Source: Candidatus Phoenicimicrobium oleiphilum (GTDB lineage: Bacteria > Atribacterota > Phoenicimicrobiia > Phoenicimicrobiales > Phoenicimicrobiaceae). Taken from it: a DNA stretch of 20,978 bases. A program made the position numbers and the translations under genes. This document shows positions 2,927 to 19,783 of the stretch, piece after piece (positions within the stretch are counted from its first letter, which is position 1; the number at the start of each line of letters is the position of its first letter). The notes below the pieces were generated by a model that had not been told where the DNA came from, made no database searches, and saw nothing but the letters and a program-made list of their open reading frames with translations. The stretch lies in the NCBI GenBank assembly GCA_039638295.1, contig JBDIWJ010000035.1:1-20978 (forward strand), read 5' to 3'.

Positions 2927-2943
2927 TTATTAATTCTCCTCTA

Positions 2944-2963
2944 ATTAGTCGTTAACGACTAAT
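2944..2963. repeat. Perfect 20-bp palindrome ATTAGTCGTTAACGACTAAT in the uvrB-uvrA spacer
   Basis: The sequence equals its own reverse complement. Its halves match the TAGTCGTT/AACGACTA arms at 7933-7949 and 8141-8157. Confidence 0.9.
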
Positions 2964-2965
2964 CA

Positions 2966-4966
2966 CTATTTTATTTCGCCGAATATAGTCTTCTCTTTTT
3001 TTAATCTTCTTATCTCATCTCTTAGTAAGGCAGCTCTTTCAAAATCTAAGTTTTTAGCTGCCTGCTTCATTTCTTTCTCTAAAGAATTGATTAATATTTT
3101 TAAACTATTTTGATTTAAATATCTCCCTCTCTCTTCTCTTATAGTAGAATTTTCTTGGAAATTAGTTAAGTTAGTAACCAAATTGAATTCTTGTACCGGT
3201 TTAATTATGGTCTGGGGAATTATATTATGTTTTCTATTGTACTCTATTTGTATCTTTCTTCTTCGATTGGTCTCTTCTACTGCTCTTCTTATTGAACCAG
3301 TAATATTTCTACAGTATAAAATAACCGTTCCATTTATATTTCGAGCTGCTCTTCCCATTGTCTGGATTAATGAAGTCTCTGATCTTAAAAAACCCTCTTT
3401 ATCCGCATCTAAAATAGCCACAAGAGATACCTCGGGAAGGTCCAGCCCCTCTCTTAAAAGATTAACTCCGACCAAAACATTAAACTTGCCCAATCTTAAA
3501 TCTCTTAAGATATTAATGCGTTCTAATGTATCTATTTCTGAATGCAGATATCTTACTTTAATATTAATCTCTTCTAAGTACTCTGCTACATTTTCTGCCA
3601 TTCTCTTAGTTAAAGTGGTTACCAATATTCTTTCTTTCTTTTCTGTTCTTTTCTTAATTTCACCTATTAGACTATCAATCTGATTTTTCGCTGGTTTTAT
3701 AATTACTTCAGGATCAACTAATCCAGTAGGTCTAATAATTTGCTCAACTACCTGTTCGCTTTTTCCCACCTCATACTTAGCTGGTGTAGCAGAAACAAAT
3801 ACAACTCTTTTCATATATTTTTCAATTTCTTTAAAATATAATGGTCTATTGTCATAGGCAGAGGGCAAACGAAATCCATATTCTACCAAGTTATCTTTTC
3901 GGGATTTGTCACCAGCAAACATCCCGCGTAATTGTGGTATGGTGACATGTGATTCATCAATAAACATTAAAAAATCAGAGGGGAAATAATCCAATAGAGT
4001 AGCTGGCGGCTCCCCTTCTTTTCTTCCACTTAGATGGCGAGAATAATTTTCAATTCCATTACAATAACCTACTTCTCTTAGCATTTCTATATCATATCTG
4101 GTTCTTTGTTCTAACCTTTGAGCTTCTAATAATTTTCCTGCTTTTTTAAAATATTTTAACCTTTCCTGCAATTCTTCTTCTATTGATAAGATTGCTCTTT
4201 CTAATTTATCTTTTGTAGTAACAAAATGTTTTGCGGGATAAATTATTAATTTATTTTTTTTATTTATAATCTTTCCGGTTAAAGGATCAACCTCTGAAAT
4301 AGCCTCTATTTCATCACCCCATAACTCTATACGGAAGGCATATTCTAAGTAGGAAGGAAATATCTCTATTACATCTCCCCTAACTCTAAAACATCCCCGG
4401 TGAAAATCAATATCATTTCTTTCGTAATGTATATTTATCAGTTTCTCTAAAATTTTATCCCTATCACAAACTTCATTCTGATTAATTATTAATACTAAAT
4501 CTTTATAGTCTTCGGGTGAACCCAATCCATAAATACAAGATACACTGGCTACGATAATCACATCATTTCTCTGGAGTAAAGAACTAGTAGCAGAGAGTCT
4601 TAACCGATCTATTTCATCATTTATAGAAGAATCTTTTTCAATATATGTATCAGTGTGTGGTATATAAGCTTCTGGCTGATAATAATCATAATAACTTACA
4701 AAATATTCTACCGCATTATACGGAAAATATTTTCTAAATTCGCTACACAATTGAGCAGCTAAAGTTTTATTATGAGAGATCACGAGGGTAGGCAACTGAA
4801 CCTCTTGGATTACATTTGCCATAGTAAAGGTTTTCCCTGAACCAGTAACACCAAGTAAAGTCTGATATTTGTATCCTTTTTTTATACCATCTATTAATTT
4901 TTTTATAGCTTGAGGCTGATCTCCTTGGGGAGAATAATCCGATACCAATTTAAAATCCTGAGCCAT
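2966..4966 (-). CDS. uvrB: Excinuclease ABC subunit B
   Basis: 666 aa. GVTGSGKT Walker [11 protein letters not shown] beta-hairpin, DESH motif and C-terminal UVR domain ([11 protein letters not shown]). Confidence 0.99.
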
Positions 4967-5035
4967 TCACAACACCTTTTATAACTATACGTATAATTCA
5001 GTTCATAATTTAAAACATATTTTTATCTTTAAATA

Positions 5036-5064
5036 ATTATACAATTATTTTATGATTCTATAAA
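5036..5064 (-). promoter_or_regulatory. Possible sigma70 promoter for uvrB-uvrA
   Basis: Minus strand reads TTTATA-17 bp-TATAAT. The -35 match is weak and the region is AT-rich. Confidence 0.35.
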
Positions 5065-5067
5065 GGG

Positions 5068-5168
5068 TTAATTCGTATCTCGTATCCAGCATCTAGTACT
5101 CGTACTATATCTGATAGCCTAAAGCGAATAGAACGCAGTAATAAAGTAATATGTAATGAGTAATATGT
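5068..5168. repeat. Degenerate heptamer arrays (CGTATCT-type, then GTAATAT-type)
   Basis: TTAATTCGTATCTCGTATC at 5068-5086 is identical to 14990-15008. GTAATAT/GTAATGA units lie at about 5138-5168. Confidence 0.75.
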
Positions 5169-5194
5169 AGAGGAGCACGATGCATCGGGCCCGT
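5167..5194. repeat. Degenerate GTAG-type REP-like palindrome
   Basis: GTAG followed by the imperfect palindrome GCACGATGCATCGGGC. Related to GATGCATTGTGCCCCTAC at 7111-7128. Confidence 0.55.
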
Positions 5195-5330
5195 CATAAA
5201 AATTATAAAAGCAGTCCAGGGTAAATAAATCCGTCTCCATTCAAAGCTATATAGACAGGTTGGTCTAACCTCGTGAAAAGGGGTGCGTTTGTTCTGTCCT
5301 ATTAACGATTAATTTTTTAGGTCAATCAGT

Positions 5331-7043
5331 TTACTCTAAAAATAAATCCACAATCTTTGAATTATCAACATCTACTAAACCTTTATTGGTTATTTTAAAA
5401 TGAGGAACAACTTCTAAGGATAAAAAAGCAATGCTCATAAAAGGATTATTCACTTTAACTCCTAAATTCCTTGAAATCTTATAAAGGGAATCTAATTTTT
5501 CTTTCACTTCTGAGAGGGGTCTATCAGACATTAATCCAGCAATAGGTAGTGGCAACGAATCTACTATTTTTTCATCTACAGATATCGCTAACCCTCCCCC
5601 CATCTTAGCAATGTTTGCACCTACATTTAACATATCTTTATCATTAGTACCAATAATTATAATATTATGGGAATCATGGGCAATAGATGAGCCCAAAGCC
5701 CCTTTTTTAAGACCAATTCCTTTAACCAAACCTAAACTTACTTTCTGAGAAGCATGATGTCTTTCTATTACCGCAACTTTTAGAATATCTCGTTTTATAT
5801 CAGATACCACCCATCCATTATTAATTCTGGGTGTCTCTATATCAATTTCAGTAATAATTTGATCTGGTAGTATTTTTATTACTCTACATTTATTTCCTTT
5901 AACTGGAATTTGGAAATCTTCGGGATAAAGCCATTTAATATTGACTGAACTTCGGATAGGTACATCCAATGCTTTAGAGATTATCTCCTTTAATTCTCCG
6001 TTTTCAGCAATTAATTCTCCGTTTCTAAAAACTTTAAGTATATTGAAATCTTCGAAGTTATCAAAAACAACTAAATCTGCAGTATACCCAGGAGCAATAG
6101 CGCCTAAATTTCTTAATCTAAAATATTCAGTAGTGTTAAGAGTTGCCATTCTTATAGCTGTAACAGGGTCAATACCACCTCTTATAGCAGTTTTAATTAT
6201 ATAATTGATGTGCCCTTCTTCTATTAGATCTTTTGGATGCCGGTCATCACAACAAAAGAAACATCTTCTAGAATTATTTAAATTTATAAGAGGTAGAAGA
6301 TCATTTAAATTCCGAGTGACAGATCCTTCTCTTAACATAATATACATTCCCAATCTTAATTTTTCTTGAGCTTCTTCTACTGTAGTACATTCATGCTCAG
6401 ATTTTATTTGGGCAGAAATATATGCGCAAAGATCTTTTCCTGACAAATTAGGGGCATGACCATCAATACATTTATGAGAAGAGACGACTATCTTATCTAA
6501 AACTTCTGGATTTTTGTTTAAAACTCCAGGAAAATTCATCATTTCCCCTAATCCCAAAACCCATTTTTCATCCAAAAGTGGATATAAATCATTTACCCCT
6601 AAATCTGCTCCCGAAGTACCTAAGGGCGAAGCGGGGACGCAGGAAGGGAGCATCATAAAGACATTTATGGGGGCATATTTGCTGGATTCTAACATATATC
6701 TGATGCCTTCTAAACCCAGAACATTGGCAATTTCATGGGGATCTATAATTACCGAAGTTGTTCCCAGAGGTACTACTGTGTTGGCAAATTCTGATACTTT
6801 TACCATTGAACTTTCTAAATGAATATGTCCGTCAATAAATCCTGGGGAGAGATAATTATTAGATATATCAATTATTCTATCAGCATCATATCCTTTTCCT
6901 ACACCCACAATCTTGTCTTTATAAATAGCAACATCAGTAGCATATATTTCCCCAGAAAATACATTTATTATATTTCCATTTTTTAATAATAAATCAGCTT
7001 TTTTCTCTCCTCGAGCCACTTTTATAATCTCTGAAAGATTCAT
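5331..7043 (-). CDS. ade: Adenine deaminase
   Basis: PGFIDGHIHLESS, DPHEIANV, EMMNFPGV, DGHAP, REGS, DDRHP and AHDSHN motifs. Start moved to MNLSEII (ATG at 7043, RBS AGGGTGA) because part of the ORF-track extension is translated heptamer repeat. Confidence 0.96.
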   Translation of the reverse strand: MNLSEIIKVARGEKKADLLLKNGNIINVFSGEIYATDVAIYKDKIVGVGKGYDADRIIDISNNYLSPGFIDGHIHLESSMVKVSEFANTVVPLGTTSVIIDPHEIANVLGLEGIRYMLESSKYAPINVFMMLPSCVPASPLGTSGADLGVNDLYPLLDEKWVLGLGEMMNFPGVLNKNPEVLDKIVVSSHKCIDGHAPNLSGKDLCAYISAQIKSEHECTTVEEAQEKLRLGMYIMLREGSVTRNLNDLLPLINLNNSRRCFFCCDDRHPKDLIEEGHINYIIKTAIRGGIDPVTAIRMATLNTTEYFRLRNLGAIAPGYTADLVVFDNFEDFNILKVFRNGELIAENGELKEIISKALDVPIRSSVNIKWLYPEDFQIPVKGNKCRVIKILPDQIITEIDIETPRINNGWVVSDIKRDILKVAVIERHHASQKVSLGLVKGIGLKKGALGSSIAHDSHNIIIIGTNDKDMLNVGANIAKMGGGLAISVDEKIVDSLPLPIAGLMSDRPLSEVKEKLDSLYKISRNLGVKVNNPFMSIAFLSLEVVPHFKITNKGLVDVDNSKIVDLFLE

Positions 7044-7062
7044 ATTAATCACCCTTTTTTTC

Positions 7063-7280
7063 ATATTGCGTATCGCGTATTGCATACTGCGTTAGAGAAA
7101 TAAAAAATAAGATGCATTGTGCCCCTACACCATATTATATATTATGGGCTGACACAAGGTTTGTCCCTACAACTATCTTCTGAATTCTGGCTCCTGGCAT
7201 CTATTTTCTTTCCTAAACCAGCTAACCAGGTAACTAACTAACCAAATACGAGATACGATTCACGAGATACGAGATACGAG
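7063..7280. repeat. Spacer cassette: left heptamer arm (GTATCGC-type, 7063-7092), two GTAG-type REP-like units (7111-7128, 7146-7170), TAACCAGN 8-mers, right arm (AGATACG-type, 7245-7280)
   Basis: Read directly from the sequence. On the minus strand the REP-like units read GTAGGGGCACAATGCATC and GTAGGGACAAACCTTGTGTCAGCCC. The right arm overlaps the 3' end of coaE. Confidence 0.75.
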
Positions 7281-7874
7281 ACTCTGCCAGATCTTTTCTA
7301 CTTGTCCCTTTGTTTTATCTAATGAATTACTATTATCTATCACATAGTCAGCCATTTTTGCTTTTTCTTTTATAGAAATTTGTGACTTAATTCTCTTTAA
7401 TGCCTTTTCTTTAGATAAATTATTTCTTTTACCTAATCTTTTAATTTGTTCCTCTTCTTCTACATATACAACAATTATCTTATCCATTAAATTATCAATC
7501 TTGGCTTCATAAATTAAGGCTGCTTCTACAATTAATATTTCTTCTTTTCCATCTTTACAAGTGCTATTTTTTGCTAAATTAATTTCCCTTTTTATTAACT
7601 TTATAATTTCCGGATGAGTAATTTCATTTAGTTTTTTTAATAACCTATCATCATTAAAGACAATTTCCCCTAATTTTTTTCTATCTATATTTAAATCTTC
7701 TTTTAATACATCTCTTCCAAATAATTTAACAATTTTCACCCAGGCAGGTTTATGAGGTAATATCACTTTATGACCAAGTTCATCAGCATCTATAATTTTA
7801 GCACCCAAATCTTTAAACATCTTAGCCACTGTACTTTTACCGCTTACAATCCCACCGGTTAGACCAATAATCAA
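7260..7874 (-). CDS. coaE: Dephospho-CoA kinase
   Basis: IIGLTGGIVSGKSTV P-loop, IIDAD, IDRKKLGEIVF, ITHPEI and ADYVIDN. Probable TTG start at 7874 with GGAGG 10 nt upstream. The ORF-track N-terminal 27 aa lie in repeat DNA and the RBS region. Confidence 0.95.
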   Translation of the reverse strand: MIIGLTGGIVSGKSTVAKMFKDLGAKIIDADELGHKVILPHKPAWVKIVKLFGRDVLKEDLNIDRKKLGEIVFNDDRLLKKLNEITHPEIIKLIKREINLAKNSTCKDGKEEILIVEAALIYEAKIDNLMDKIIVVYVEEEEQIKRLGKRNNLSKEKALKRIKSQISIKEKAKMADYVIDNSNSLDKTKGQVEKIWQSLVSRIS

Positions 7875-7910
7875 CCCTATATTTCCTCCCATACATAGTC
7901 GATAGTGAAT

Positions 7911-7932
7911 CTTGTCCTCGTGAAAACGGGGA
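7911..7932. repeat. 22-bp GAAA-tetraloop hairpin unit CTTGTCCTCGTGAAAACGGGGA
   Basis: Stem TCCTCGT/ACGGGGA (one G-T pair) around a GAAA loop. It interrupts an ATAGTGA heptamer. A related copy, CCTCGTGAAAAGGGG, is at 5269-5283. Confidence 0.7.
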
Positions 7933-7944
7933 AGTGAATAGTCG

Positions 7945-8104
7945 TTAGTTAGCATTAAGTTTTTTTATTAAGCTCATAGTCATTTTACTAATTTCATCAA
8001 TTTCATTTAGTAATTTATTAGCTTCCTTATTTTCAAAATATCCCAGTCGTAAGGCAATAATAATTTGAGTGGAAAGTTCAGCACAACCGACTTGTTATTT
8101 TCAT
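7945..8104 (-). pseudogene. Internally deleted four-helix-bundle protein gene (23S rRNA IVP / TIGR02436-like)
   Basis: RBS AAGAAGGA and ATG at 8104 give MKITS. In a shifted frame, 8088-7945 reads GCAELSTQIIIALRLGYFENKEANKLLNEIDEISKMTMSLIKKLNAN*, which resembles the family C-terminal half. Family recognised by eye, not by search. Confidence 0.8.
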
Positions 8105-8155
8105 AATCCTTCTTATTATTCTAAATACTACTCACTATTCACTAACGACTATTAA

Positions 8156-10807
8156 CTAATTTAGTTCTGCCCAATTATAGCCAGTCTTTAAATTAACTTT
8201 TAGAGGAACGGAAAGTTCTAAACTATGTTCCATAATATCTTTTACGAAATATTTTACTTCTTCTACTTCAGTTTTATAAACCTCAAATATTAATTCATCA
8301 TGAATTTGAAGAAGTAACTTAGTTTTAAGTCCTTTGTTCTTTAACAACCCATTAATTTTAATCATAGCTAACTTTATCAAATCTGCGGCACTACCCTGAA
8401 TAGGAGCATTAATGGCTATCCGTTCATTAAACTCTCTTATACTTCTATCCTGGCTATTTATACCATCTAAATATCTTCTTCGATTTAATAGGGTAACAAC
8501 ATAACCCTTTTTTCGGGCATCTTCTTTTTCCTTTTCAATATACTTTTTTACTCCCTGATATCTTTGGAAATAATTGTGAATATATTTTTCTGCCTCTTCT
8601 CTCCCTATCCCCAGGCTTCGAGCTAATCCATAACTACTCATACCATAAATAATTCCAAAATTTATCGTCTTAGCCATTCTCCTCATCTGTTCGTTAATTA
8701 AATCCTGATCAAGGTCAAATATATCTGCAGCAGTATGAGTATGAATATCTTCATCATTTCTAAAAGCAGTTATTAAACTTTCATCCTGTGAAAGATGAGC
8801 TAAAATACGTAATTCAATCTGGGAATAATCAGCTGATAATAGTATAAAATCTTCCTCGGGAATAAAAGCCCTTCTTATTTTTCTACCTATTTCGGTCCTG
8901 ATAGGAATATTCTGAAGATTTGGTTCGCTGCTGCTTAATCTTCCCGTAGAGGTAATAGTCTGATGAAAGGAAGTATGTATCCTTTTTGTATGGTCATTTA
9001 CTAAAAGGGGTAATTTTTCTATATAAGTATTTTTCAGTTTACATAATTCTCTGTATTCTAAGATAAAAGATACTATCTTATGTTGTGGAGCCAAAGTGCT
9101 AAGCACAAAAGAATTGGTAGAATAACCTGTTTTGGTCTTTTTAATCACCGGTAATTTCAATTTTTCAAAAAGTATTTTGCTTAGCTGCTTTGGAGAATTG
9201 ATATTGAATTTAGTTTCCGATAAATTATAGATATTCTCCTCTAATTCTATTAGCCGAGAATCCACTTGTGCAGACATTTTTTTTAAAAAATCAACATCTA
9301 CTTTAATTCCATTAATTTCCATCTCTGCTAATATTTTTACTAAAGGCATTTCGATTTCTTTAAATAAAGAAATTAATTCTTTTTCTTTTAATTTTTCCTC
9401 TAAAACTTCTTTTAACTTTAGGATTTTTTTAGCATTCTCACAAGCATTTTCTGTGTATTCAAAAGAATTTTCATTATTTTGTTTTTCTTTATTTTTCAAG
9501 TATCCTAAATATTCCCAGAATAAACTATTTAGATTGTATTCTTCTTTTGAGGGATTCAGCAAATAAGCAGCAACCATAGTATCAAAATTATCTCCCTTTA
9601 ATTCAATTTGATATCTATTCAAGACAATAAAACTATGTTTAAGATCATGCCCTATTTTTATAATTTTTTCATCTCTAAAAAATGGACCTAATTGTCTTAG
9701 GACTACACCTGAAGAAAGATACTTAAGTCTTTCCATTAAATTCAGGGGAGAGAGTGGTATATAAAAAGTTTCATTATTTTTAAAACTTATAGCGATTCCT
9801 AAGATCTGGGAAGAAACAGTATTATCGGAAGAAGTAATCAAATAGAACGAAAAATATTTATCCTTTTTAATTATATTGATTAACTCGTTCAATTTCTCTT
9901 TGGTTTCAACTAAGTTATATTTTATTTTTTTATTTTCTTGATTAATTTGAGGAGATATTTTTTTCACTAAATTCTTAAATTCTAATTTTTTAAATATTTT
10001 CAATAATTCTCCATAATTTGGAGATTTAATCCTAAAATCATCAAAATTATAGTCTATAGGTACATCAGTTACAATTGTGGCTAATTTCTTGCTCATTAAA
10101 ACTTGCTCTTTATATTTTATTAACTGTTCTCTTAATGATTTTTTAGATATTTTATCAATATCTTTAAATAGATTATTTAAATTACCATATTTTTTAATTA
10201 AGTTTATCGCTGTCTTTTCTCCTATGCCTGGAACTCCAGGAATGTTATCAGAAGAATCTCCTTTTAAAGCAATTATATCTACTATTTTATCAGGTTTCAC
10301 TCCATATTTATTTCTTATACTTTCTTCATCATATATTTTGACTTCAGTTATTCCTTTGATAGTAGTTACTACTTTAGTAAAGGGAGAAATTAGTTGGAAG
10401 ATATCTTTGTCACCGGTGACAATTAATGTATTATAATTTCTTTTTTCTGCCTTTTTTACCATTGTCCCAATAATATCATCTGCCTCATACTCCTCTTTAG
10501 AACAGATAGAAATATTGTAATTGTGAATTATTTCTTCAACCAATGGAATTTGAGTCATTAGTTCATCAGGCATCTTCTTACGATGAATCTTATAACCTTC
10601 AAATTCTTTATGTCGAAAGGTAGGCTTAGGTGTATCAAAGGCAACCATAATATAATCGGGTTTTTCTTCTTCTATTAACTTTACCAATATCATTGTAAAT
10701 CCATATACTGCATTTATAATTTGTCCATAAGAAGTAGTTAATCGGGGTAAAGCATAAAAAGTCCGATAAAGTAATCCTTGCCCATCAATTATAATGAATT
10801 TTTTCAT
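8156..10807 (-). CDS. polA: DNA polymerase I
   Basis: 883 aa. 5'-3' exonuclease motifs (EADDIIGT, GDSSDNIPGVPGIGEKTA) and polymerase motifs TGRLSSSEPNLQNIP, DYSQIELR, AKTINFGIIYG and QIHDEL. Confidence 0.99.
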   Translation of the reverse strand: MKKFIIIDGQGLLYRTFYALPRLTTSYGQIINAVYGFTMILVKLIEEEKPDYIMVAFDTPKPTFRHKEFEGYKIHRKKMPDELMTQIPLVEEIIHNYNISICSKEEYEADDIIGTMVKKAEKRNYNTLIVTGDKDIFQLISPFTKVVTTIKGITEVKIYDEESIRNKYGVKPDKIVDIIALKGDSSDNIPGVPGIGEKTAINLIKKYGNLNNLFKDIDKISKKSLREQLIKYKEQVLMSKKLATIVTDVPIDYNFDDFRIKSPNYGELLKIFKKLEFKNLVKKISPQINQENKKIKYNLVETKEKLNELINIIKKDKYFSFYLITSSDNTVSSQILGIAISFKNNETFYIPLSPLNLMERLKYLSSGVVLRQLGPFFRDEKIIKIGHDLKHSFIVLNRYQIELKGDNFDTMVAAYLLNPSKEEYNLNSLFWEYLGYLKNKEKQNNENSFEYTENACENAKKILKLKEVLEEKLKEKELISLFKEIEMPLVKILAEMEINGIKVDVDFLKKMSAQVDSRLIELEENIYNLSETKFNINSPKQLSKILFEKLKLPVIKKTKTGYSTNSFVLSTLAPQHKIVSFILEYRELCKLKNTYIEKLPLLVNDHTKRIHTSFHQTITSTGRLSSSEPNLQNIPIRTEIGRKIRRAFIPEEDFILLSADYSQIELRILAHLSQDESLITAFRNDEDIHTHTAADIFDLDQDLINEQMRRMAKTINFGIIYGMSSYGLARSLGIGREEAEKYIHNYFQRYQGVKKYIEKEKEDARKKGYVVTLLNRRRYLDGINSQDRSIREFNERIAINAPIQGSAADLIKLAMIKINGLLKNKGLKTKLLLQIHDELIFEVYKTEVEEVKYFVKDIMEHSLELSVPLKVNLKTGYNWAELN

Positions 10808-10844
10808 ATTATTTGGAACCTATTTTTCTTTCTATAAATTTTTC

Positions 10845-10873
10845 TTGACAATAAATATAAGTTAACCTATAAT
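10845..10873 (+). promoter_or_regulatory. Consensus sigma70 promoter for tRNA-Leu
   Basis: TTGACA (10845-10850), 17 bp, TATAAT (10868-10873), ending 23 bp upstream of the tRNA. Confidence 0.88.
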
Positions 10874-10896
10874 TTCTTTACAAGAAAGCTATATAA

Positions 10897-10985
10897 GCCG
10901 AAGTGGCGAAATTGGTAGACGCACTGGACTCAAAATCCAGCGAGCCTTTAAGCTCATGTCGGTTCGACTCCGACCTTCGGCACCA
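10897..10985 (+). tRNA. tRNA-Leu (anticodon CAA)
   Basis: Acceptor stem GCCGAAG/CTTCGGC, D-loop TTGGTAGAC, anticodon arm CTGGA-CTCAAAA-TCCAG, long variable arm, GGTTCGACTCC T-arm, discriminator A and encoded CCA. Confidence 0.98.
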
Positions 10986-11054
10986 TCATTTCGTATCTTG
11001 TTGTTCGTATCTTGTATCTCGTTTTCTAGCAAATAACTTAGAGTTTTCCTCTTA

Positions 11055-11170
11055 TGTCATTACGAGCGACCATAGGGAGCGTGGCAATCTCATTGAGATT
11101 GCTTCGTCACTTCGTTCTTCGCAACGACACTCGGTGTTATGTCATTGCGAGCGTCAGCGATGCAATCTCA
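11055..11170. repeat. Cluster of three alternating palindromic units (TGTCATTGCGAG...GCAATCTCA family)
   Basis: Forward unit 11055-11092, reverse unit 11094-11129, forward unit 11140-11170. Enclosed by heptamer arms at about 10990-11023 and 11204-11223. Confidence 0.8.
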
Positions 11171-11223
11171 AAATTATCTTACTTTAGTTAACTTAGCACT
11201 AGTTACGATTCACGAGATACAAG

Positions 11224-11451
11224 TTAATTATCGTTATCTAATAAACTATCATCATAAAGTAAGGCTTGACTAACTACATCTATAGCTTCTTGAACTTCAC
11301 ACTTAGGCACTAAAATCTCTACATTTCCATTTAACTCATCTTGGCTTATCTCCAACTGATTTAAAATAGTTACAATTCCTTTTTCTTTTAAAATTTTCTC
11401 AATATTCTTTGCTAAAGAAATATCTTTGGCAACATATATCACTTTCCACAT
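11224..11451 (-). CDS. Small conserved hypothetical protein, DUF2007-like
   Basis: 75 aa with GAGG RBS, directly downstream of dnaE. The MWxVIY...L..xGI...VEILVP..E...A pattern resembles small DUF2007-type proteins. Confidence 0.75.
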   Translation of the reverse strand: MWKVIYVAKDISLAKNIEKILKEKGIVTILNQLEISQDELNGNVEILVPKCEVQEAIDVVSQALLYDDSLLDNDN

Positions 11452-11478
11452 CTCAAATAAACCTCTAAGAATAATTTT

Positions 11479-14400: not shown

Positions 14401-14973
14401 ATTCTCATTAACAATCTCTTGTTCCGGAATACCATTTTTTTGTAATTCTAAATAAAAATTATCTTCTCCAAAGATATTAACAAAATCAACTGTGACTTCT
14501 TTAGCTCTATTTATATTATTTTGTAAAATATAGTAGGGAATCTCACCCTTTAAACAAGCAGATAACCCAATTAATCCTTTACTATATTCCCTTAATATTT
14601 CTTTATCAATTCTTGGTTTATAGTAAAATCCCTCCAAATAAGATAAAGTAACTAATTTCATTAAATTTTTATAACCTTCATTATTCTTGGCTAATAAGAT
14701 TAAATGATAAGGAGTTTCTTTTCTTTGGGTAGATTTATCAAATCTACTATTGGGGGCAACATACACTTCACAGCCAATTATAGGCTTTACTCCTTGCCGA
14801 ATAGCTTCTTTATAGAATTGAATCACTCCATACATAACTCCATGATCAGTAATAGCTAAAGCAGGCATTTTATATTTTTTAGCTTTTGCCACCAATTCTT
14901 TAATCCTACAGGCACCATCTAATAAGCTGTATTCAGTATGGACATGTAGGTGAACAAAGTTTGAATGCCACAC
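11479..14973 (-). CDS. dnaE: DNA polymerase III alpha subunit
   Basis: 1164 aa. PHP domain (FVHLHVHTEYSLLDGA, AITDHG), GPGRGSAAGS, catalytic PDFDIDF, KMDFLGL, GFNKSHS and OB fold. GTG start. Confidence 0.99.
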   Translation of the reverse strand: MWHSNFVHLHVHTEYSLLDGACRIKELVAKAKKYKMPALAITDHGVMYGVIQFYKEAIRQGVKPIIGCEVYVAPNSRFDKSTQRKETPYHLILLAKNNEGYKNLMKLVTLSYLEGFYYKPRIDKEILREYSKGLIGLSACLKGEIPYYILQNNINRAKEVTVDFVNIFGEDNFYLELQKNGIPEQEIVNENLIKIGQELSIPLVASSDIHYIKKEDASAHEILLCIQTATNLDDPKRLKFATDKFYFCSPEEMNQNFSEIPQAIENTIRIAEKCNLEINFKQAQLPEFSVPQNYNINSYLKELCYQGLKERYPIITKELEDRLEYELSVIEKMEFVPYFLIVWDFVRYAKEKNIMVGPGRGSAAGSLVAYCLKITNVDPMTYGLLFERFLNPERISMPDFDIDFCYERREEVIEYVSKKYGEDKVAQIITFGTMAARAAIRDVGRALGVPYSQVDTIAKMIPWEPNITIEKALNMESRLKDLMKKDKNIKKLIDIASSLEGLARHASTHAAGIVLSQKPLTDYVPLQNTTESEICTQYAMTELEELGLLKMDFLGLRTLTVISNTLEIIKHTQGKEVDIDRIPLDDKLVYRMLSQGNCAGIFQLESEGMRDLVKRLKPESIEDIAALLALYRPGPLGSGMIEDFINRKKGIVKIRYPHPRLESILKETYGVIVYQEQVMKIASELAGFTLGQADILRKAMGKKQKVVMEKQREIFIKGAQKKGIRKSSATEIFDLIAYFAGYGFNKSHSVSYAFISYQTAYLKTHYPVEYMSSLLTSIMGNNDKVALYIKECKNMNIDILPPDINQSLVNFTVVGEKAIRFGLAAVKNVGEKAIKSIIKERKKNSNFTSLLDFCQRVDLRLVNKRVIESLIKCGAFDSLEVRRSQLLEILDDTMKSGQEYQKAQKNGQTSIFDLFKEPRKKYISINQREKMPDIPEFSQSELLAMEKEMLGLYISYHPLDNYQEKLQKIITSTSVGLKNLPDKSKVILGGVINNFKRKSTKNGNLMVFISLEDLEGTVEVIVFPKVYEEHKELIMKEEIVIIKGRLDIAEGKVKLIAEDISPLNKYLEEESTLKEEEGKQDFLEELHLEINSSNNKPDLLVNLKEIFCTYPGKSQIILHFKEKEKTILHAIDKKYSVNINDELVRKIRYILGNEKVWVEQIANN

Positions 14974-15050
14974 GTAAAAACCCCCAGATTTAATTCGTAT
15001 CTCGTATCTCGTAATAGTATAGCGTAGAGCGTATAGCGTATAGGAATACA

Positions 15051-15263
15051 GTATCGAGTATCGAGTATATAGTTAAGAAAGAAACTGTCCAACTGATAAA
15101 ACAATATTGAGCGAATAATTAATAAACATCTTTAACCACTTCTATTCCTGCTTGCCAGATTCTCAAATCTTGAAAGTTTTTTATCCTTTCAGCTATTCTT
15201 CTCTTTCTTTTTTCTCCTCACTATATACTCGATACTTGATACTGGATACTCGATACTCGATAC
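15051..15263 (-). mobile_element. MITE-like cassette copy 1 carrying a four-helix-bundle 5' fragment
   Basis: Perfect 16-bp inverted repeats GTATCGAGTATATAGT (15058-15073) and ACTATATACTCGATAC (15220-15235), each extended by heptamer arrays. The interior is homologous to 17328-17520 in inverted orientation. Mobility is inferred. Confidence 0.7.
15119..15196 (-). pseudogene. Four-helix-bundle protein N-terminal fragment
   Basis: Reads (I)AERIKNFQDLRIWQAGIEVVKDVY*, matching the family F.DL.(I/V)WQ....V..(I/V)Y N-terminus. ATA stands where ATG is expected. Confidence 0.75.
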
Positions 15264-15269
15264 AGTTTT

Positions 15270-16301
15270 TTATTTAAAAAATACCTGGGCTAATTCCCAC
15301 CATTTTTTATCTACAGTTTTAAGTTTGCTAACCGCTTCTTTTAAAGGCACCCCTGTTACTTCATTCCCTTTAAGAGCAGCCATATAACCGAATTTTCCTT
15401 GGGCAATCAAATCTACCGCAGTAACTCCACACCTAAGGCCTAAAATACGATCAAAAAGTGTAGGAGAACCTCCCCTTTGAATATGGCCAATTACTGCATA
15501 GCGAGTTTCTATCCCTGTTTTTTCTTCAATCAAATCTGCTAGAAGATTACCTACCCCTCTTTTACGTAAAATCATATGTCCAAATTGATCTAATTCCTCT
15601 TTTCCGGTTTCTATGCCAGGGAGAATTACTCCTTCTGATATCACTACAGAAGCGTACTTTTTCTTTTTATATACTTCTTTTAAATGCTGGCACATTTTCT
15701 CTATATCTATTTCTCCCTCGGGAATTAAGGTCCAATCTGCCCCTGAACCAAGACCAGTAAACAGAGCTACCCAACCAGCATGTCTCCCCATTACCTCTAA
15801 AATCATTATTCTCCGATGAGAAAGACCAGTATCTTGAAGACTCTTCATAGCCTGAATTGCCCAGGTAACCGAACTATCAAATCCAAAAGTATAATCAGTA
15901 CCACTAAGATCATTATCCATAGTTTTGGGAGCTCCAACTAATTTTATATCCTCTTCTTGAAATAATCTATTAGCAACTCCCAAAGTATCTTCTCCTCCAA
16001 TTGCTAAAACTGCATCTATCTTAAAACTTTTCAGGGAATTAAGTACTTTCTTAACTCCATTGTCTACTTTGTAGGGGTTTAATCTTGAAGTACCTAAAAT
16101 AGTACCACCTTTGTCTACTATTTCTTCTACCTCATTTATGCTTAAGGGCTTCATTTCACCCATTACCAGTCCTTTCCAACCTTCCTGGATTCCATAAACT
16201 TCATAATTATAATCTTTTGCCCTATATACTGCTCCCCTAATAGTTGGATTTAATCCCGGGCAATCTCCCCCACCAGTTAAAATAGCTATTCTTTTAATCA
16301 T
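15270..16301 (-). CDS. pfkA: Phosphofructokinase, group III, probably pyrophosphate-dependent
   Basis: TGGGDCPGLN, GGTILGTSR, GGEDT, PKTMDND, EVMGRHAG and GHIQRGG motifs. Probable start MIKRIAIL at 16301, just after the fba stop. Confidence 0.93.
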   Translation of the reverse strand: MIKRIAILTGGGDCPGLNPTIRGAVYRAKDYNYEVYGIQEGWKGLVMGEMKPLSINEVEEIVDKGGTILGTSRLNPYKVDNGVKKVLNSLKSFKIDAVLAIGGEDTLGVANRLFQEEDIKLVGAPKTMDNDLSGTDYTFGFDSSVTWAIQAMKSLQDTGLSHRRIMILEVMGRHAGWVALFTGLGSGADWTLIPEGEIDIEKMCQHLKEVYKKKKYASVVISEGVILPGIETGKEELDQFGHMILRKRGVGNLLADLIEEKTGIETRYAVIGHIQRGGSPTLFDRILGLRCGVTAVDLIAQGKFGYMAALKGNEVTGVPLKEAVSKLKTVDKKWWELAQVFFK

Positions 16302-16306
16302 ATTTA

Positions 16307-17173
16307 TCACGCCTTTCCACTGCAACCAAAAACTCTCATTCTATCGCGAATAATTTCTTTGGCTGCTTCTTTTGCTGGACCTAATATTTTACGTGGATCT
16401 ATCTCTTCCGGGTTCATTTTTATTATTTCTTTAATTTTTTCGGTAAATTTCATCCGGATTCGTGTATCTATATTAATCTTACATATCCCTGCCGCAATAC
16501 CTTTTTTAACTTCTTCATCATTAACCCCCGAGGCTCCATGCAAAACTAAAGGTACTCCTGTTAATTCTCTTATTTTTTCAATTCGAGCAATATCTAATTT
16601 TGCAAAAGGTGTACGGCAACCATGAATTGTACCCACAGCAGCTGCTAGTGAGTCTATCTCGGTTAATTCAACAAATTTTGCTGCTTCCTCAGGCTTAGCC
16701 ATTGTCTCTTTTACTTTTTCCAAAGCAACTCCTGGCTCATCACTATCACCCATTTTCCCTATTTGTCCTAATTCTGCTTCTACTGGAATATCGCAAGTAT
16801 GAGCCATCTCCACAACTTTTTTAGTCATTTTAACATTATCATCAAAAGGTAATTTTGAACCATCAAACATTAAGGAAGTAAAACCTGCCCTTAAGCATTT
16901 TATGTTTTGATAATAATCTGTTCCATGGTCTAAATGCAAAGCTACTGGTATACTTGCTTTTTCAGCTTCAACTTTTACCATAGCTACAATAATATCTAAT
17001 CCTGCATATTTTATAGCACCCTGGGAAGCTTGCAAGATTACTGGAGCCCTTTCTTCTTCAGCAGTTTCTATTATCGCTTGGATAATCTCCATATTATTAG
17101 CGTTAAAAGCTCCTACTGCATACCTTTCCTTTTGAGCTTTTTTTAACATTTCCTTGGTAGTTACTAAAGCCAT
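16307..17173 (-). CDS. fba: Class II fructose-1,6-bisphosphate aldolase
   Basis: YAVGAFN, ALHLDHG, SLMFDGS, VEAELG, GTIHG, LVLHGASG, KINIDT and DPRK motifs. Probable start MALVTT at 17173 with AAGGGG RBS. Confidence 0.96.
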   Translation of the reverse strand: MALVTTKEMLKKAQKERYAVGAFNANNMEIIQAIIETAEEERAPVILQASQGAIKYAGLDIIVAMVKVEAEKASIPVALHLDHGTDYYQNIKCLRAGFTSLMFDGSKLPFDDNVKMTKKVVEMAHTCDIPVEAELGQIGKMGDSDEPGVALEKVKETMAKPEEAAKFVELTEIDSLAAAVGTIHGCRTPFAKLDIARIEKIRELTGVPLVLHGASGVNDEEVKKGIAAGICKINIDTRIRMKFTEKIKEIIKMNPEEIDPRKILGPAKEAAKEIIRDRMRVFGCSGKA

Positions 17174-17273
17174 CGTTCTTTCCCCTTTCATTCATTTATA
17201 TTATTTCTTATACTTAATTGTCTATAAATACCCTCTTCTTCTGACTCAAACTGATAGTTTTTAAATTTTATTT

Positions 17274-17302
17274 ATTATAACTTGTTTATTTTTTCATTTC
17301 AA
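17274..17302 (-). promoter_or_regulatory. Sigma70-type promoter for fba-pfk
   Basis: Minus strand reads TTGAAA-17 bp-TATAAT. Confidence 0.7.
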
Positions 17303-17311
17303 GGGAATTAT

Positions 17312-17520
17312 TCGTATCGCGTATTGTGTATCGAGTATATAGTAAAGAGAGAAGAGCAAAGAGAAAAATAACTGAAAAAATAAAAAACTTTCAAGATTTG
17401 AAAATCTGATAAAAAGGAATAGAAGTCGTTAAAGATGTTTATTAATTATTCGCTCAATATTGTTTTATAAGTTGGACAGTTTCTTTTTTAACTATATATT
17501 ACATACTCGATACTCGATAC
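17312..17520 (+). mobile_element. MITE-like cassette copy 2 carrying a four-helix-bundle 5' fragment
   Basis: Left end GTATCGAGTATATAGT (17328-17343), right end ACTATATA..ATACTCGATACTCGATAC (17491-17520). About 10 mismatches over the 127-bp core (17372-17498) against the reverse complement of copy 1, by manual alignment. Confidence 0.7.
17368..17445 (+). pseudogene. Four-helix-bundle protein N-terminal fragment with nonsense mutations
   Basis: Reads ITEKIKNFQDLKI**KGIEVVKDVY*. The TGG CAA (WQ) of copy 1 is TGA TAA here. Confidence 0.72.
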
Positions 17521-17533
17521 TATATTAATATAG

Positions 17534-17562
17534 TTGAGAATAATCTTAATTAATGATATAGT
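17534..17562 (+). promoter_or_regulatory. Probable sigma70 promoter for hflKC
   Basis: TTGAGA-17 bp-TATAGT with an extended -10 TGn. Confidence 0.55.
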
Positions 17563-17622
17563 TTTAACATAAATAATATATAAACGTAATTTTGGTTATT
17601 TTAGTAAAAAGGAGGAATAAAT

Positions 17623-18642
17623 ATGCCAGAATACTATGATGAAGACAAGGATAGAATTATTAATATTGCTGAAAAAATACCGAAATTAAAATTTAGCAAA
17701 AAATTATTCGGTATTATCTTGGTGTTATTAATTGCGCTCTACCTTGCCAGTGGAATTTTTGTGGTTGCTCCTGATGAACAAGGAGTAGTCAAAAGATTTG
17801 GTAAATTTAATCGTATAGTAAGTCCGGGGCTCAACTATCACTTCCCTTATCCCATAGAAACAGTTTTTACTCCAGCAGTTACTCAAGTAAGAAGGGTGGA
17901 AATAGGATTTCGCACTATTAGCCTTGGTCCACCTGCACGTTACCAAGAAATTCCAGCAGAGGCTTTGATGTTAACCGGGGATGAAAATATTGTTAGTGCA
18001 GAAGCAATTGTTCAATACAAAATAAAGGACCCCGTTGACTATCTTTTTAATATTATTTTACCAGAACAGACGGTTAAAAGTGCTGCTGAGGCTGTTTTAA
18101 GGCAAGTAATTGGAGAGAGAAAAATAGATGAAGCACTTACTGTTGGAAAATATGAAATTCAGGAGGAAACAAAGAAAGTACTTCAAACTCTCTTAGATTC
18201 CTATAAATCAGGAATCCTTGTAGTTGCGGTTCAATTACAAGATGTTAACCCACCCAAAGAGGTTCAAGACGCTTTTAAGGATGTAGCCAGCGCAAAAGAA
18301 GATAAAAGTAAATACATAAATCAAGCCCAAGGGTATAAAAACGATATAATTCCCAAGGCTCGAGGAGAGGCAGTAAAAATTACCAAAGAAGCTGAAGGCT
18401 ACAAAATTGAGAGAATAAAAAAAGCTGAAGGTGATATCGCAAAATTCAATAGTATTTTAACTGAATATAAAAAAGGTGAATATATAACTCGAGCTCGCCT
18501 TTATCTGGAAACTATGGAAGAAATTTTACCCAATATGAATAAAGTAATAGTTGATTTAAAGGAAAATCAATCCTTAATAAATCTATTACCCTTAGGCGAT
18601 GCAAATATTCTAACTGCTCCTTCTAAGGAGGTGACCAAGTGA
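17623..18642 (+). CDS. hflK: FtsH protease modulator HflK
   Basis: AAGGAGG RBS, N-terminal TM helix and SPFH domain (GVVKRFGK, PGLNYHFPYPIE, MLTGDENIV, VQDAFKDV, IPKARGEA, RLYLETME). Confidence 0.96.
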   Translation: MPEYYDEDKDRIINIAEKIPKLKFSKKLFGIILVLLIALYLASGIFVVAPDEQGVVKRFGKFNRIVSPGLNYHFPYPIETVFTPAVTQVRRVEIGFRTISLGPPARYQEIPAEALMLTGDENIVSAEAIVQYKIKDPVDYLFNIILPEQTVKSAAEAVLRQVIGERKIDEALTVGKYEIQEETKKVLQTLLDSYKSGILVVAVQLQDVNPPKEVQDAFKDVASAKEDKSKYINQAQGYKNDIIPKARGEAVKITKEAEGYKIERIKKAEGDIAKFNSILTEYKKGEYITRARLYLETMEEILPNMNKVIVDLKENQSLINLLPLGDANILTAPSKEVTK

Positions 18643-19493
18643 TGAAAAAAGGAACAATTGCTATTATAATTATAATAACTCTATTAATTTTAGCTAATTT
18701 AACTTTGTTTATTGTTGATGAAACTAAGCAAGCAATTGTATTACAATTTGGTAAACCAATAAGAGTAATTAAAGAACCTGGCTTAAACTTTAAACTTCCT
18801 TTTATTCAAAATGTATTATTTTTTGAAGACCGGCTATTGGTATACGATGCTGCTCCCACTGAGGTTATCACTAAAGATAAAAAAACCTTAATTGTGGACA
18901 ATTATGCTCGCTGGAAAATTTTAGACCCTTTAACATTTTTACAAACTGTTAGAGATTTAAATGGTGCCCAGGCAAGATTAGATGATATTATATATTCCGA
19001 ATTGAGAGTTGACTTAGGATTATTTAATATGAGCGAAATAGTGTCAGAAAAAAGAGAATCTATTATGAGAAGGGTTACCAACATAAGCAATGAAAAGGCT
19101 AATACTTACGGTATAGAAATTGTGGATGTAAGAATCAAAAGAGTTGATTTGCCTCCAGAAAATGAAAAATATATCTTTGAAAGAATGAGGGCAGAAAGAG
19201 AGCGAATAGCAAAACAATACAGAGCTGAAGGGCAGGAAGAAGCAGCTAAAATTATTGCAGAAACCGAAAGAGAGAAAACGGTTATTTTGGCTGAAGCTTA
19301 TAAAACTGCTCAAACTTTAAAGGGTGAGGGAGAAGCAGAGGCTGTTAGAATATATGCGGAGAGTTTTAATCAAGATCCTGAATTTTATAAATTTTACAGA
19401 ACTTTAGAAGCTTATAAAAATACTTTTAGAGAGAAAACCACTGTCTTACTTTCTACTGATTCTGAATTTTTGAAATACTTAAGCAAACCCTGA
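18639..19493 (+). CDS. hflC: FtsH protease modulator HflC
   Basis: Overlaps the hflK stop (GTGATG) with an AGGAGG RBS. TM helix, QAIVLQFGKP, RMRAERERIA and DPEFYKFYRTLEAY. The start could be the ATG at 18642. Confidence 0.96.
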   Translation: MMKKGTIAIIIIITLLILANLTLFIVDETKQAIVLQFGKPIRVIKEPGLNFKLPFIQNVLFFEDRLLVYDAAPTEVITKDKKTLIVDNYARWKILDPLTFLQTVRDLNGAQARLDDIIYSELRVDLGLFNMSEIVSEKRESIMRRVTNISNEKANTYGIEIVDVRIKRVDLPPENEKYIFERMRAERERIAKQYRAEGQEEAAKIIAETEREKTVILAEAYKTAQTLKGEGEAEAVRIYAESFNQDPEFYKFYRTLEAYKNTFREKTTVLLSTDSEFLKYLSKP

Positions 19494-19494
19494 A

Positions 19495-19780
19495 ATCTCG
19501 TATCAAGTATCGCGTATCGAGTATCGCGTTTGTTCCCCCTCACCCTCTCTCCAGAAGGGGAGAGGGAATGGAGGGGGAATAAAGGATTTATTACTTTAAT
19601 TTTATTCTACACTCTATATGGAATTCTGACTCCTAACTACTGACTCCTGAATTCTTTTTTACGAGATACGAATTAGACTCCTGGTTCCCGACTTGTATTT
19701 TCTTCACTATATACGCGATACTCGATACTAGTTATCCTATACGCTAGATGAACCTACTCTCCGCTATCTTGCTATACGCT
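19495..19780. repeat. Spacer cassette between convergent genes: left heptamer arm, GC-rich hairpin, CTCCTGA-type heptamers, right arms
   Basis: ATCTCGT-ATCAAGT-ATCGCGT-ATCGAGT-ATCGCGT at 19495-19529, TACGAGATACGAATTA at 19660-19675 and CACTATATACGCGATACTCGATAC at 19705-19728. Confidence 0.78.
19533..19579. terminator. GC-rich hairpin, REP-like and a possible bidirectional terminator
   Basis: Outer stem TTCCCCCTC/GAGGGGGAA and inner stem CCCTCTCTCC/GGGGAGAGGG, between convergent hflC and the dehydrogenase. No clear U-tract. Confidence 0.5.
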
Positions 19781-19783
19781 AAT

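Follow-up and report, generated by a model that had tools for sequence, protein, structure and literature searches.

Inverted heptamer arrays and four-helix-bundle gene remnants in the spacers of a Candidatus Phoenicimicrobium oleiphilum contig: a candidate family of small selfish cassettes

What kind of element places tandem heptamers in opposite orientation at the two ends of a gene spacer, and does so repeatedly along one contig? This question is raised by the window, i.e., the whole stretch of 20,978 nucleotides analysed here, which is the entire contig C35 of the source genome assembly of Candidatus Phoenicimicrobium oleiphilum (GCA_039638295.1, denoted G000; 1.65 Mb, 33% G+C, 91% complete). 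An original prediction, made from the sequence alone, regarded six of its spacers, and a seventh with only the left arm, as selfish cassettes bounded by inverted arrays, here called opening and closing arms, and linked to four-helix-bundle genes of the PF05635/TIGR02436 family. Following this up in G000 and in 41 related genomes, we favour, with a probability of about 0.58, the reading that what fills the spacers is the stacked debris of small cassettes of one family. On this reading, each cassette has a four-helix-bundle gene flanked on both sides by arrays, inverted with respect to each other, of a repeat unit that belongs to it. The cassettes occupy many different gene junctions, one taking the place of another at the same junction, likely through DNA recombination at the arms, with the protein probably reading its own repeat.

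Arrays, their polarity and the gene between them

Ten unit models were learned from G000 and applied to its spacers, to shuffled spacers and to coding DNA. The models place 565 arrays in 265 of the 965 spacers; shuffled spacers contain 4, and 511 kb of coding DNA yields 10. Array periods across the genome peaked at 7, 8 and 14 (197, 118 and 109 arrays) as compared with 0-44 for other periods. The arrays are confirmed to be real and not an artefact; all seven window spacers contain them where the original prediction had placed them, and three also contain gene remnants. Their predicted fixed polarity was found throughout the genome instead of random orientation. Spacers with both orientations of a single family show the opening before the closing array in 64 of 64 cases, and every opening arm lies ahead of every closing arm in 117 of the 118 two-sided spacers (39 ± 5 expected; the polarity of families G and E was assigned after the data were inspected). 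Each spacer is therefore one nested structure with a single centre. From the outside inwards, family B lies outside A (13:2), A outside D (14:0) and A outside F (18:0), and hairpins of the repetitive extragenic palindromic (REP) type lie inside all arms for three motifs (56/59, 19/23 and 13/13 cases). Since most spacers are composites of several unit families and REP-type hairpins, the left and right arms, which share a family in 61 of the 118 two-sided spacers, are often not mutual reverse complements; this corrects the prediction that six spacers open with an array and end with its reverse complement. Family expansions are independent per genome, the A/F pattern counts being 46/72 in G000, 2/60 in G002 and 177/34 in G021. 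The 8-mer family F (e.g., C15:100-300 and C76:2281-2446) is among the most abundant, with 78 arms placed.

The link of these arrays to PF05635/TIGR02436 has been borne out. Two intact genes are present in G000, on contigs C3 and C43, and belong to the family by profile score (139 and 128 bits, over the cut-off) and by their four-helix fold. Both are flanked by inverted arms, each of a different unit family; among the gene families enclosed by arms in G000 only these two genes are clean cases, the others being ordinary genes between unmatched arms. In the relatives, PF05635 matches occur in 32 of the 41 genomes, and 66 near-complete genes from 71 loci, which are part of the matches listed, were used; 59 of the 66 have both flanks. 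An inverted periodic word is present on both flanks of 37 of the 59 and a direct word of 5, as compared with 10.5 ± 2.5 for permuted pairing, and the 22 genes lacking a shared inverted word belong mostly to the sister family or have one strong arm. With the models trained on G000, 44 of the 66 genes have a matched pair of own arms. The design is general beyond this lineage: among 66 genome loci, inverted periodic words of period 7 flank 25 and those of period 8 flank 10, the figures for 71 metagenome loci being 25 and 17, while direct words number 1-5 in these sets. Four-helix-bundle genes with inverted arrays are also found on contigs classed as viral (L389-L426; 18 of period 7 and 3 of period 8 among 36 examined).

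The repeat units are clade-specific. The gene tree, in which few columns and long branches are flagged, groups by unit into four GTAT sub-types, TAGT, AGTAAT, TAGCGT and a 13-member clade mostly with 8-mers. Arm similarity (Jaccard) is 0.44 at protein identities of at least 80% and 0.013 below 45%, and below about 60-70% identity units no longer follow the protein. Genes sharing 80% identity or more precede different neighbours, and the cassette at one and the same junction can differ from genome to genome, for instance before clpX-like, aspS-like and alaS genes (the first two named from their N-termini). Intact genes mostly occupy clean spacers holding only their own arms, and when foreign arms adjoin them, these lie mostly outside the own arms (L011, L046, L053, L056, L065). 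Mobility of the cassette unit is well supported, and the cassette likely spreads as DNA. Both intact genes of G000 (C3:957-1316 and C43:7674-8039) adjoin type IV pilus-like genes, read from translations as a prepilin-type gene and a PilB-like ATPase; DNA uptake could aid spread.

Remnants in the window and alleles in relatives

The features of the window are listed in Table 1. Its cassettes hold no intact four-helix-bundle gene, only the three remnants that the original prediction had recognised. One gene-less derivative is present twice, 2 kb apart and in opposite orientation. Arms had been described as abutting stop codons without breaking them; beyond abutting genes, arms supply the stop codons of uvrB, coaE and polA (8156-8158 for the last), and genome-wide 40 of the 194 outer arms at gene 3' ends cover the whole stop codon. 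The C-termini of CoaE and PolA vary among relatives (window 7260-7281 and 8156-8170; L073-L093) as their last codons and stop come from the arms.

Table 1. Features of the window related to arrays and cassettes (opening/closing array places; A, B, C, D, H and J are unit families).
Position	Strand	Feature	Array places	Details
2943-2969	.	Bare B-family palindrome (TAGTCG core), end-stage remnant, between uvrB stop and uvrA ribosome site		Palindrome itself 2943-2964; one extra unit precedes on - strand; fold against shuffles z -6.6/-4.7; uvrB stop 2966-2968
5073-5165	+	Stacked opening arms, starting just upstream of uvrB -35 box	left arms from 5073	A 5073-5095, J 5115-5128, D 5137-5165
5167-5315	.	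Middle and right part of ade-uvrB spacer		REP-like hairpin of GTAG type, decayed, 5167-5193; short piece of hairpin 5269-5283; closing remnant, degenerate
7064-7281	.	Composite ade-coaE spacer	7064-7092/7246-7281	A opening arm 7064-7092; REP-like hairpins 7111-7170; closing arms C 7176-7200, H (8-mer) 7216-7243, A 7245-7281, the last encoding CoaE C-terminus and stop (7260-7262)
7895-8159	.	B-family cassette, polA/coaE	7895-7951/8132-8159	Outer arm 7895-7908, inner 7933-7951, far 8132-8159
7948-8085	-	B-clade four-helix-bundle gene remnant, C-terminal (aa 75-120)		E 7e-16; 80% to L007; also matches TIGR02436 (E 1e-8)
10897-10985	+	tRNA-Leu(CAA)		Left neighbour of 10991 cassette
10991-11222	.	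Gutted A-family cassette between tRNA-Leu 3' end and convergent 75-aa ORF	10991-11022/11202-11222	Cargo: GTCATTGC-type REP hairpins, 11056-11170
14995-15265	.	Composite pfkA-dnaE spacer	14995-15068/15225-15263	Outer unmatched arms A 14995-15013, J 15017-15043; inner arms 15046-15068/15225-15263 are a matched pair
15104-15196	-	Four-helix-bundle gene remnant, N-terminal (about aa 1-25)		E 6e-9; clade of intact contig C3 gene
17312-17522	.	Second, inverted copy (86% identical) of 15046-15263 derivative	17312-17339/17502-17522	Between divergent -35 boxes: fba 17302, hflK 17534
17368-17460	+	Gene remnant within 17312-17522 cassette		E 7e-5
19495-19782	.	Composite spacer, convergent hflC/2-hydroxyacid dehydrogenase	19495-19529/19706-19782	A opening arm 19495-19529; GC-rich hairpin 19535-19566; closing arms C 19620-19656, A 19661-19729, J 19735-19782; fold against shuffles z -7.1/-4.8

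The genes of the window are uvrA, uvrB, adenine deaminase (ade), coaE, polA, tRNA-Leu, a 75-aa open reading frame (ORF), dnaE, pfkA, fba, hflK, hflC and 2-hydroxyacid dehydrogenase, and an Rfam scan gave the tRNA as the sole match. The 75-aa ORF (11224-11451, - strand) is conserved without an NCBIfam match and stands between dnaE and tRNA-Leu in 25 of 30 family genomes. Among named genomes, the closest four-helix-bundle matches are mostly labelled Atribacterota.

Since the related genomes are kin and not independent samples, comparisons of alleles at the same junctions are patterns and not tests. Presence/absence polymorphism was expected of a selfish cassette, and filled, gutted and empty alleles have been found. 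Between polA and coaE, an intact B gene is present in G022 (L007), a frameshifted near-full copy in G001 (L075) and the C-terminal third in the window; gaps measure 13-552 nt within the family and 3-147 nt in its sister family. At the tRNA-Leu junction, the gene is full-length in 4 of 26 loci (L136, L139 and L159, and L143 with a premature stop), the window has REP cargo and G005 has a 6-nt gap. Between pfkA and dnaE, gaps are 27 and 32 nt in G008 and G002, and G042, G020, G007, G015, G014 and G001 form a series of internal deletions; the derivative duplicated in the window is full-length at one of its two sites in G020, G015 and G007. The ade-coaE junction holds an intact cassette in G016 (L056). 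Cargo has been inverted in place at fba-hflK (G000 compared with G015) and after hflC (G014 and G009 compared with G023 and G004). The uvrB and uvrA genes are coupled directly (-1 or 0 nt) in G006 and G019, are separated by the bare palindrome in G000 and G014, and have a spacer of up to 349 nt in other family members. In the filled alleles of this junction (window 2927-2985; L448-L457), a region around the ribosome site is loosely repeated on either side of the insert, possibly an old target duplication. The decay series from gene fragment to bare palindrome and the selfish nature of the cassette are both supported, and none of the three outcomes that the original prediction had named as refuting it (random orientation of arrays, no association with the genes, no polymorphism among relatives) was observed. 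The contribution of this window consists of nesting across several families and a map of units per clade, neither of which figured in the original prediction, together with allelic series at six junctions.

These alleles bear on the explanation that the arrays are satellites grown by slippage, or domesticated regulatory elements such as terminators or spacers, which arise locally and are linked to the gene only incidentally. The units are indeed short and degenerate, and their copy number differs among relatives. Opening arms are rich in G (178 against 24), and of 211 arms 136 retain GT while 28 have AC; as Rho is present, such arms would avoid Rho loading. This explanation has, however, no place for inverted pairing around genes, clade-specific units, gene remnants inside arms or wholesale replacement between relatives, and since junctions are empty in close relatives, there is no conserved function at a site. 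It is largely refuted already by the filled alleles at the same junctions, and we consider it highly improbable. The G-richness and conserved GT of opening arms extend across phyla, closing arms being C-rich (L238-L426; window), and with Rho present this could keep C-rich RNA off stop codons.

The core mechanism that had been proposed was looping-out in RNA, in which the arms pair, ribonuclease III (RNase III) cuts them and the cargo leaves the transcript as in 23S rRNA intervening sequences, such neutrality permitting operon sites. The protein family is the same as that of the Coxiella element, RNase III is encoded in G000, and the arms bring stop codon and ribosome site together. Of the 8 spacers tested, 6 fold more strongly than 40 shuffles; the exceptions are 7060-7283 (z about -1) and 5066-5330 (z 0 to +1). 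On the other side, cassettes also lie outside transcripts: the 17312-17522 copy sits between divergent -35 boxes, and the 5073 arm starts upstream of the uvrB -35 box. The promoter and terminator scan consists of consensus matches and is overall at chance level, and the -35 boxes therefore rest on their score and on conservation in relatives. Arms are about 80% complementary and can pair, yet they are not tuned to their own partner, the duplex with it being -24.7 kcal/mol as compared with -26.8 for same-family arms of other loci; about half of the two-sided spacers have unmatched families, and inversion of cargo is a DNA event. A cut mRNA is a split mRNA and not a restored one, and this mechanism offers no route of spread. 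We regard it as improbable. The RNA runs were available as contigs only; run X2 covers genes and spacers evenly, with a flat, DNA-like profile, and is thus likely DNA-rich. Joints in these contigs turned out to be repeat artefacts or alleles of relatives.

Movement of the cassettes and the search for a mobiliser

Because of inversion, replacement and sites between promoters, movement appears, from these sequence comparisons, to take place at the DNA level. A newly arrived cassette would occupy a junction all the way between the stop codon and the ribosome site, or would land within older arms, and both neighbouring genes would stay working because an arm can supply the stop codon. The cassette would then lose its gene by deletion, and the leftover arms would persist as landing pads, so that later cassettes and REP-type elements could stack inside them. 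The protein, predicted to form an Avd-like ring without a known catalytic site, would bind its arrays where the nucleic acid is single-stranded or forms a hairpin, and would recruit a putative cutter or recombinase supplied in trans.

The kinship to Avd stated in the original prediction is confirmed by the fold. The fold of the PF05635 protein resembles those of Xcc0516, BT_0352 and Avd, the structural matches being 2GSC (Xcc0516; Z 20.1, rmsd (root-mean-square deviation) 1.0 over 110 residues), 2RLD (16.9) and Avd (14.6-14.9). Its identity to Avd is about 10%, and the Avd model gives 36 bits against a cut-off of 80. A resemblance of PF05635 to Avd is also mentioned in the literature (in the part of PMC10053308 consulted), and Avd is described, in the part seen of 10.1101/2023.10.23.563531, as a pentamer that grips a stem-loop via flipped bases between protomers and has no chemistry itself. 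The PF05635 protein probably acts as a reader of its own repeat, since many unit families coexist in one genome, each tied to a clade, and a single host factor would explain this poorly.

Candidates for the enzyme were sought in G000 among RT (reverse transcriptase), Y1, GIY-YIG, DUF559 and PDDEXK_3 genes, and the co-occurring mobiliser (Y1 nuclease, RT or recombinase) envisaged by the original prediction was not among them; DUF559 and PDDEXK_3 had no match in this assembly. The sole Y1 gene of G000, which encodes a 294-aa transposase (C23:17500-18570, L103), has its own long palindromic inverted ends (TIRtron-like), has no arrays and is unrelated to them. Two small GIY-YIG genes (C3:13725-14586, L105, and C2:85100-85720, L104) lie inside array-bearing spacers, each between its own class of REP-like hairpin, and in G004, G045 and G015 similar genes stand at the junction of pilB and alaS; these genes resemble a second system of gene plus repeat that shares the sites of the first.

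Several results weigh against the cassette reading. RT (PF00078) has no match in the 91%-complete G000, and RT of any kind is found in only 13 of 41 genomes. At the 14 Y1 loci of relatives inspected by eye, of 20 fetched, the genes have their own ends and not the arrays; no linked transposase with matching ends was found among Y1 genes, DDE and other recombinase families not having been searched. No target duplication stood out in 32 matched outer pairs, at old, reworked sites (longest direct match 4.5 against 4.26 ± 0.17 permuted). Hundreds of B, D, F, G and H arrays are present in G000 with no intact gene of those clades in the assembly, and none of the 66 genes examined has flanking F arrays. 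The mode of array length is 4 units and not 5, and the idea that a pentamer matches five units was rejected. Gene-arm covariation is also expected from plain co-inheritance. Among 66 loci of other lineages nearest the 8-mer clade, period 8 is found in 19 and period 7 in 31, i.e., period and unit are not kept at about 50% identity; the idea that this clade keeps period 8 across lineages failed, and the loss speaks against a fixed clade code and agrees with gradual joint drift. Finally, binding and mobility are inferred here from comparisons of sequences and folds.

Several of these points are shared by a serious, though unlikely, rival of a passive kind. Here fragile hairpin spacers would break at their centre and be repaired from other spacers or incoming DNA via arm microhomology, the gene hitchhiking or acting on RNA, and turnover would be the work of other enzymes, namely host repair, GIY-YIG nucleases or REP transposases. 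This accounts for nesting, mismatched arms, inversions and compound modules common to several loci, and the GIY-YIG genes with their own hairpins in array-bearing G000 spacers and at the pilB-alaS junction of relatives, the lack of a target duplication signal and the hundreds more arrays than intact genes agree with it. What it leaves unexplained is that inverted arrays surround this gene family across many phyla with ever-changing units, that all units of both arms change jointly, and that the spacers of intact genes are mostly clean, with own arms only.

The active cassette, in which the protein reads its arms, has a wider version, which we offer tentatively and hold somewhat less probable than not: PF05635 proteins may be the sequence-reading subunits of a widespread class of mobile cassettes, each paralog binding its own 7- or 8-base array and directing insertion or exchange at junctions. 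If so, it would account for the excess of intergenic heptamer repeats in bacteria, the ORF-bearing rRNA intervening sequences would be one landing site of the class, and a likely ancestor would be provided for Avd of diversity-generating retroelements. The findings join two old puzzles, a very common protein family of unknown function and unexplained intergenic heptamer repeats. As this lineage has more than ten close paralogs, each with its own unit, protein-repeat specificity is directly assayable by cross-binding. Nested repeat cassettes are also seen here to rewrite the junctions between genes, the stop codons and the C-termini of proteins in a family of bacteria.

Comparison with known systems

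In the 23S element of Coxiella burnetii, heptamer repeats precede the S23p ORF, and RNase III cleaves a 28-bp stem (PMC4990558, seen in part). It shares with the cassettes the TIGR02436/PF05635 protein, an ORF enclosed by inverted ends with heptamers before the start codon, and reductive decay of the ORF, and it appears to be one of the landing sites of this design. In contrast, all window cassettes and both intact genes are located between protein or tRNA genes and not inside a 23S rRNA gene (that of G000 lies outside the assembly); they occupy intergenic spacers, tRNA ends and sites between promoters, belong to more than ten unit families, are nested and have imperfect stems.

Diversity-generating retroelements are related through Avd (PDB 4DWL, 8UB7), a nucleic-acid-binding pentamer of the same fold without chemistry of its own, whereas the PF05635 protein remains under the Avd cut-off, and no RT, template or variable repeat was found at the loci examined. 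Transposable elements of the miniature inverted-repeat type (MITEs) and mobile insertion cassettes are gene-less derivatives with inverted ends. The derivative present twice in the window resembles them, but here neither a target duplication signal nor a fixed terminal sequence nor a matching transposase was found.

Cyanobacterial short tandemly repeated repetitive (STRR) sequences are intergenic tandem heptamer repeats. In the parts seen of two reports, such heptamers are described for Xanthomonas (GGGAATC, including inverted, i.e., convergent, pairs) and Nostoc (PMC4692102), and for Beggiatoaceae (TAACTGA, direct arrays; PMC4679880). They resemble the present arrays in lying in tandem between genes, often beside start or stop codons; the difference is that the arrays here are tied to a four-helix-bundle gene family and its remnants, and a term search of the text available from these two reports gave no mention of helix-bundle genes. 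Our literature search, which left most subscription journals and supplements outside its scope, gave no description of four-helix-bundle genes within inverted heptamer arrays outside rRNA.

The RAYT/REPIN systems (REP-associated tyrosine transposases and REP doublets forming hairpins; REPtrons), as far as described in the parts seen of PMC3337134 and PMC3733652, combine a small gene with inverted repeats, many gene-less doublets, an own repeat per gene variant, genome-specific expansions and collapse to bare palindromes. A gene-specific repeat and many gene-less inverted doublets are likewise found here. The gene, however, is PF05635 and not an HUH/Y1 transposase, and it moves location often; the arms are tandem 7/8-mers and not short GTAG-tagged palindromes, GTAG hairpins being separate cargo inside the arms. 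The best reading is thus a REPtron-like family of selfish cassettes related to ORF-bearing 23S rRNA intervening sequences: the window elements vary the design of ORF-bearing intervening sequences and behave as a REPtron does.

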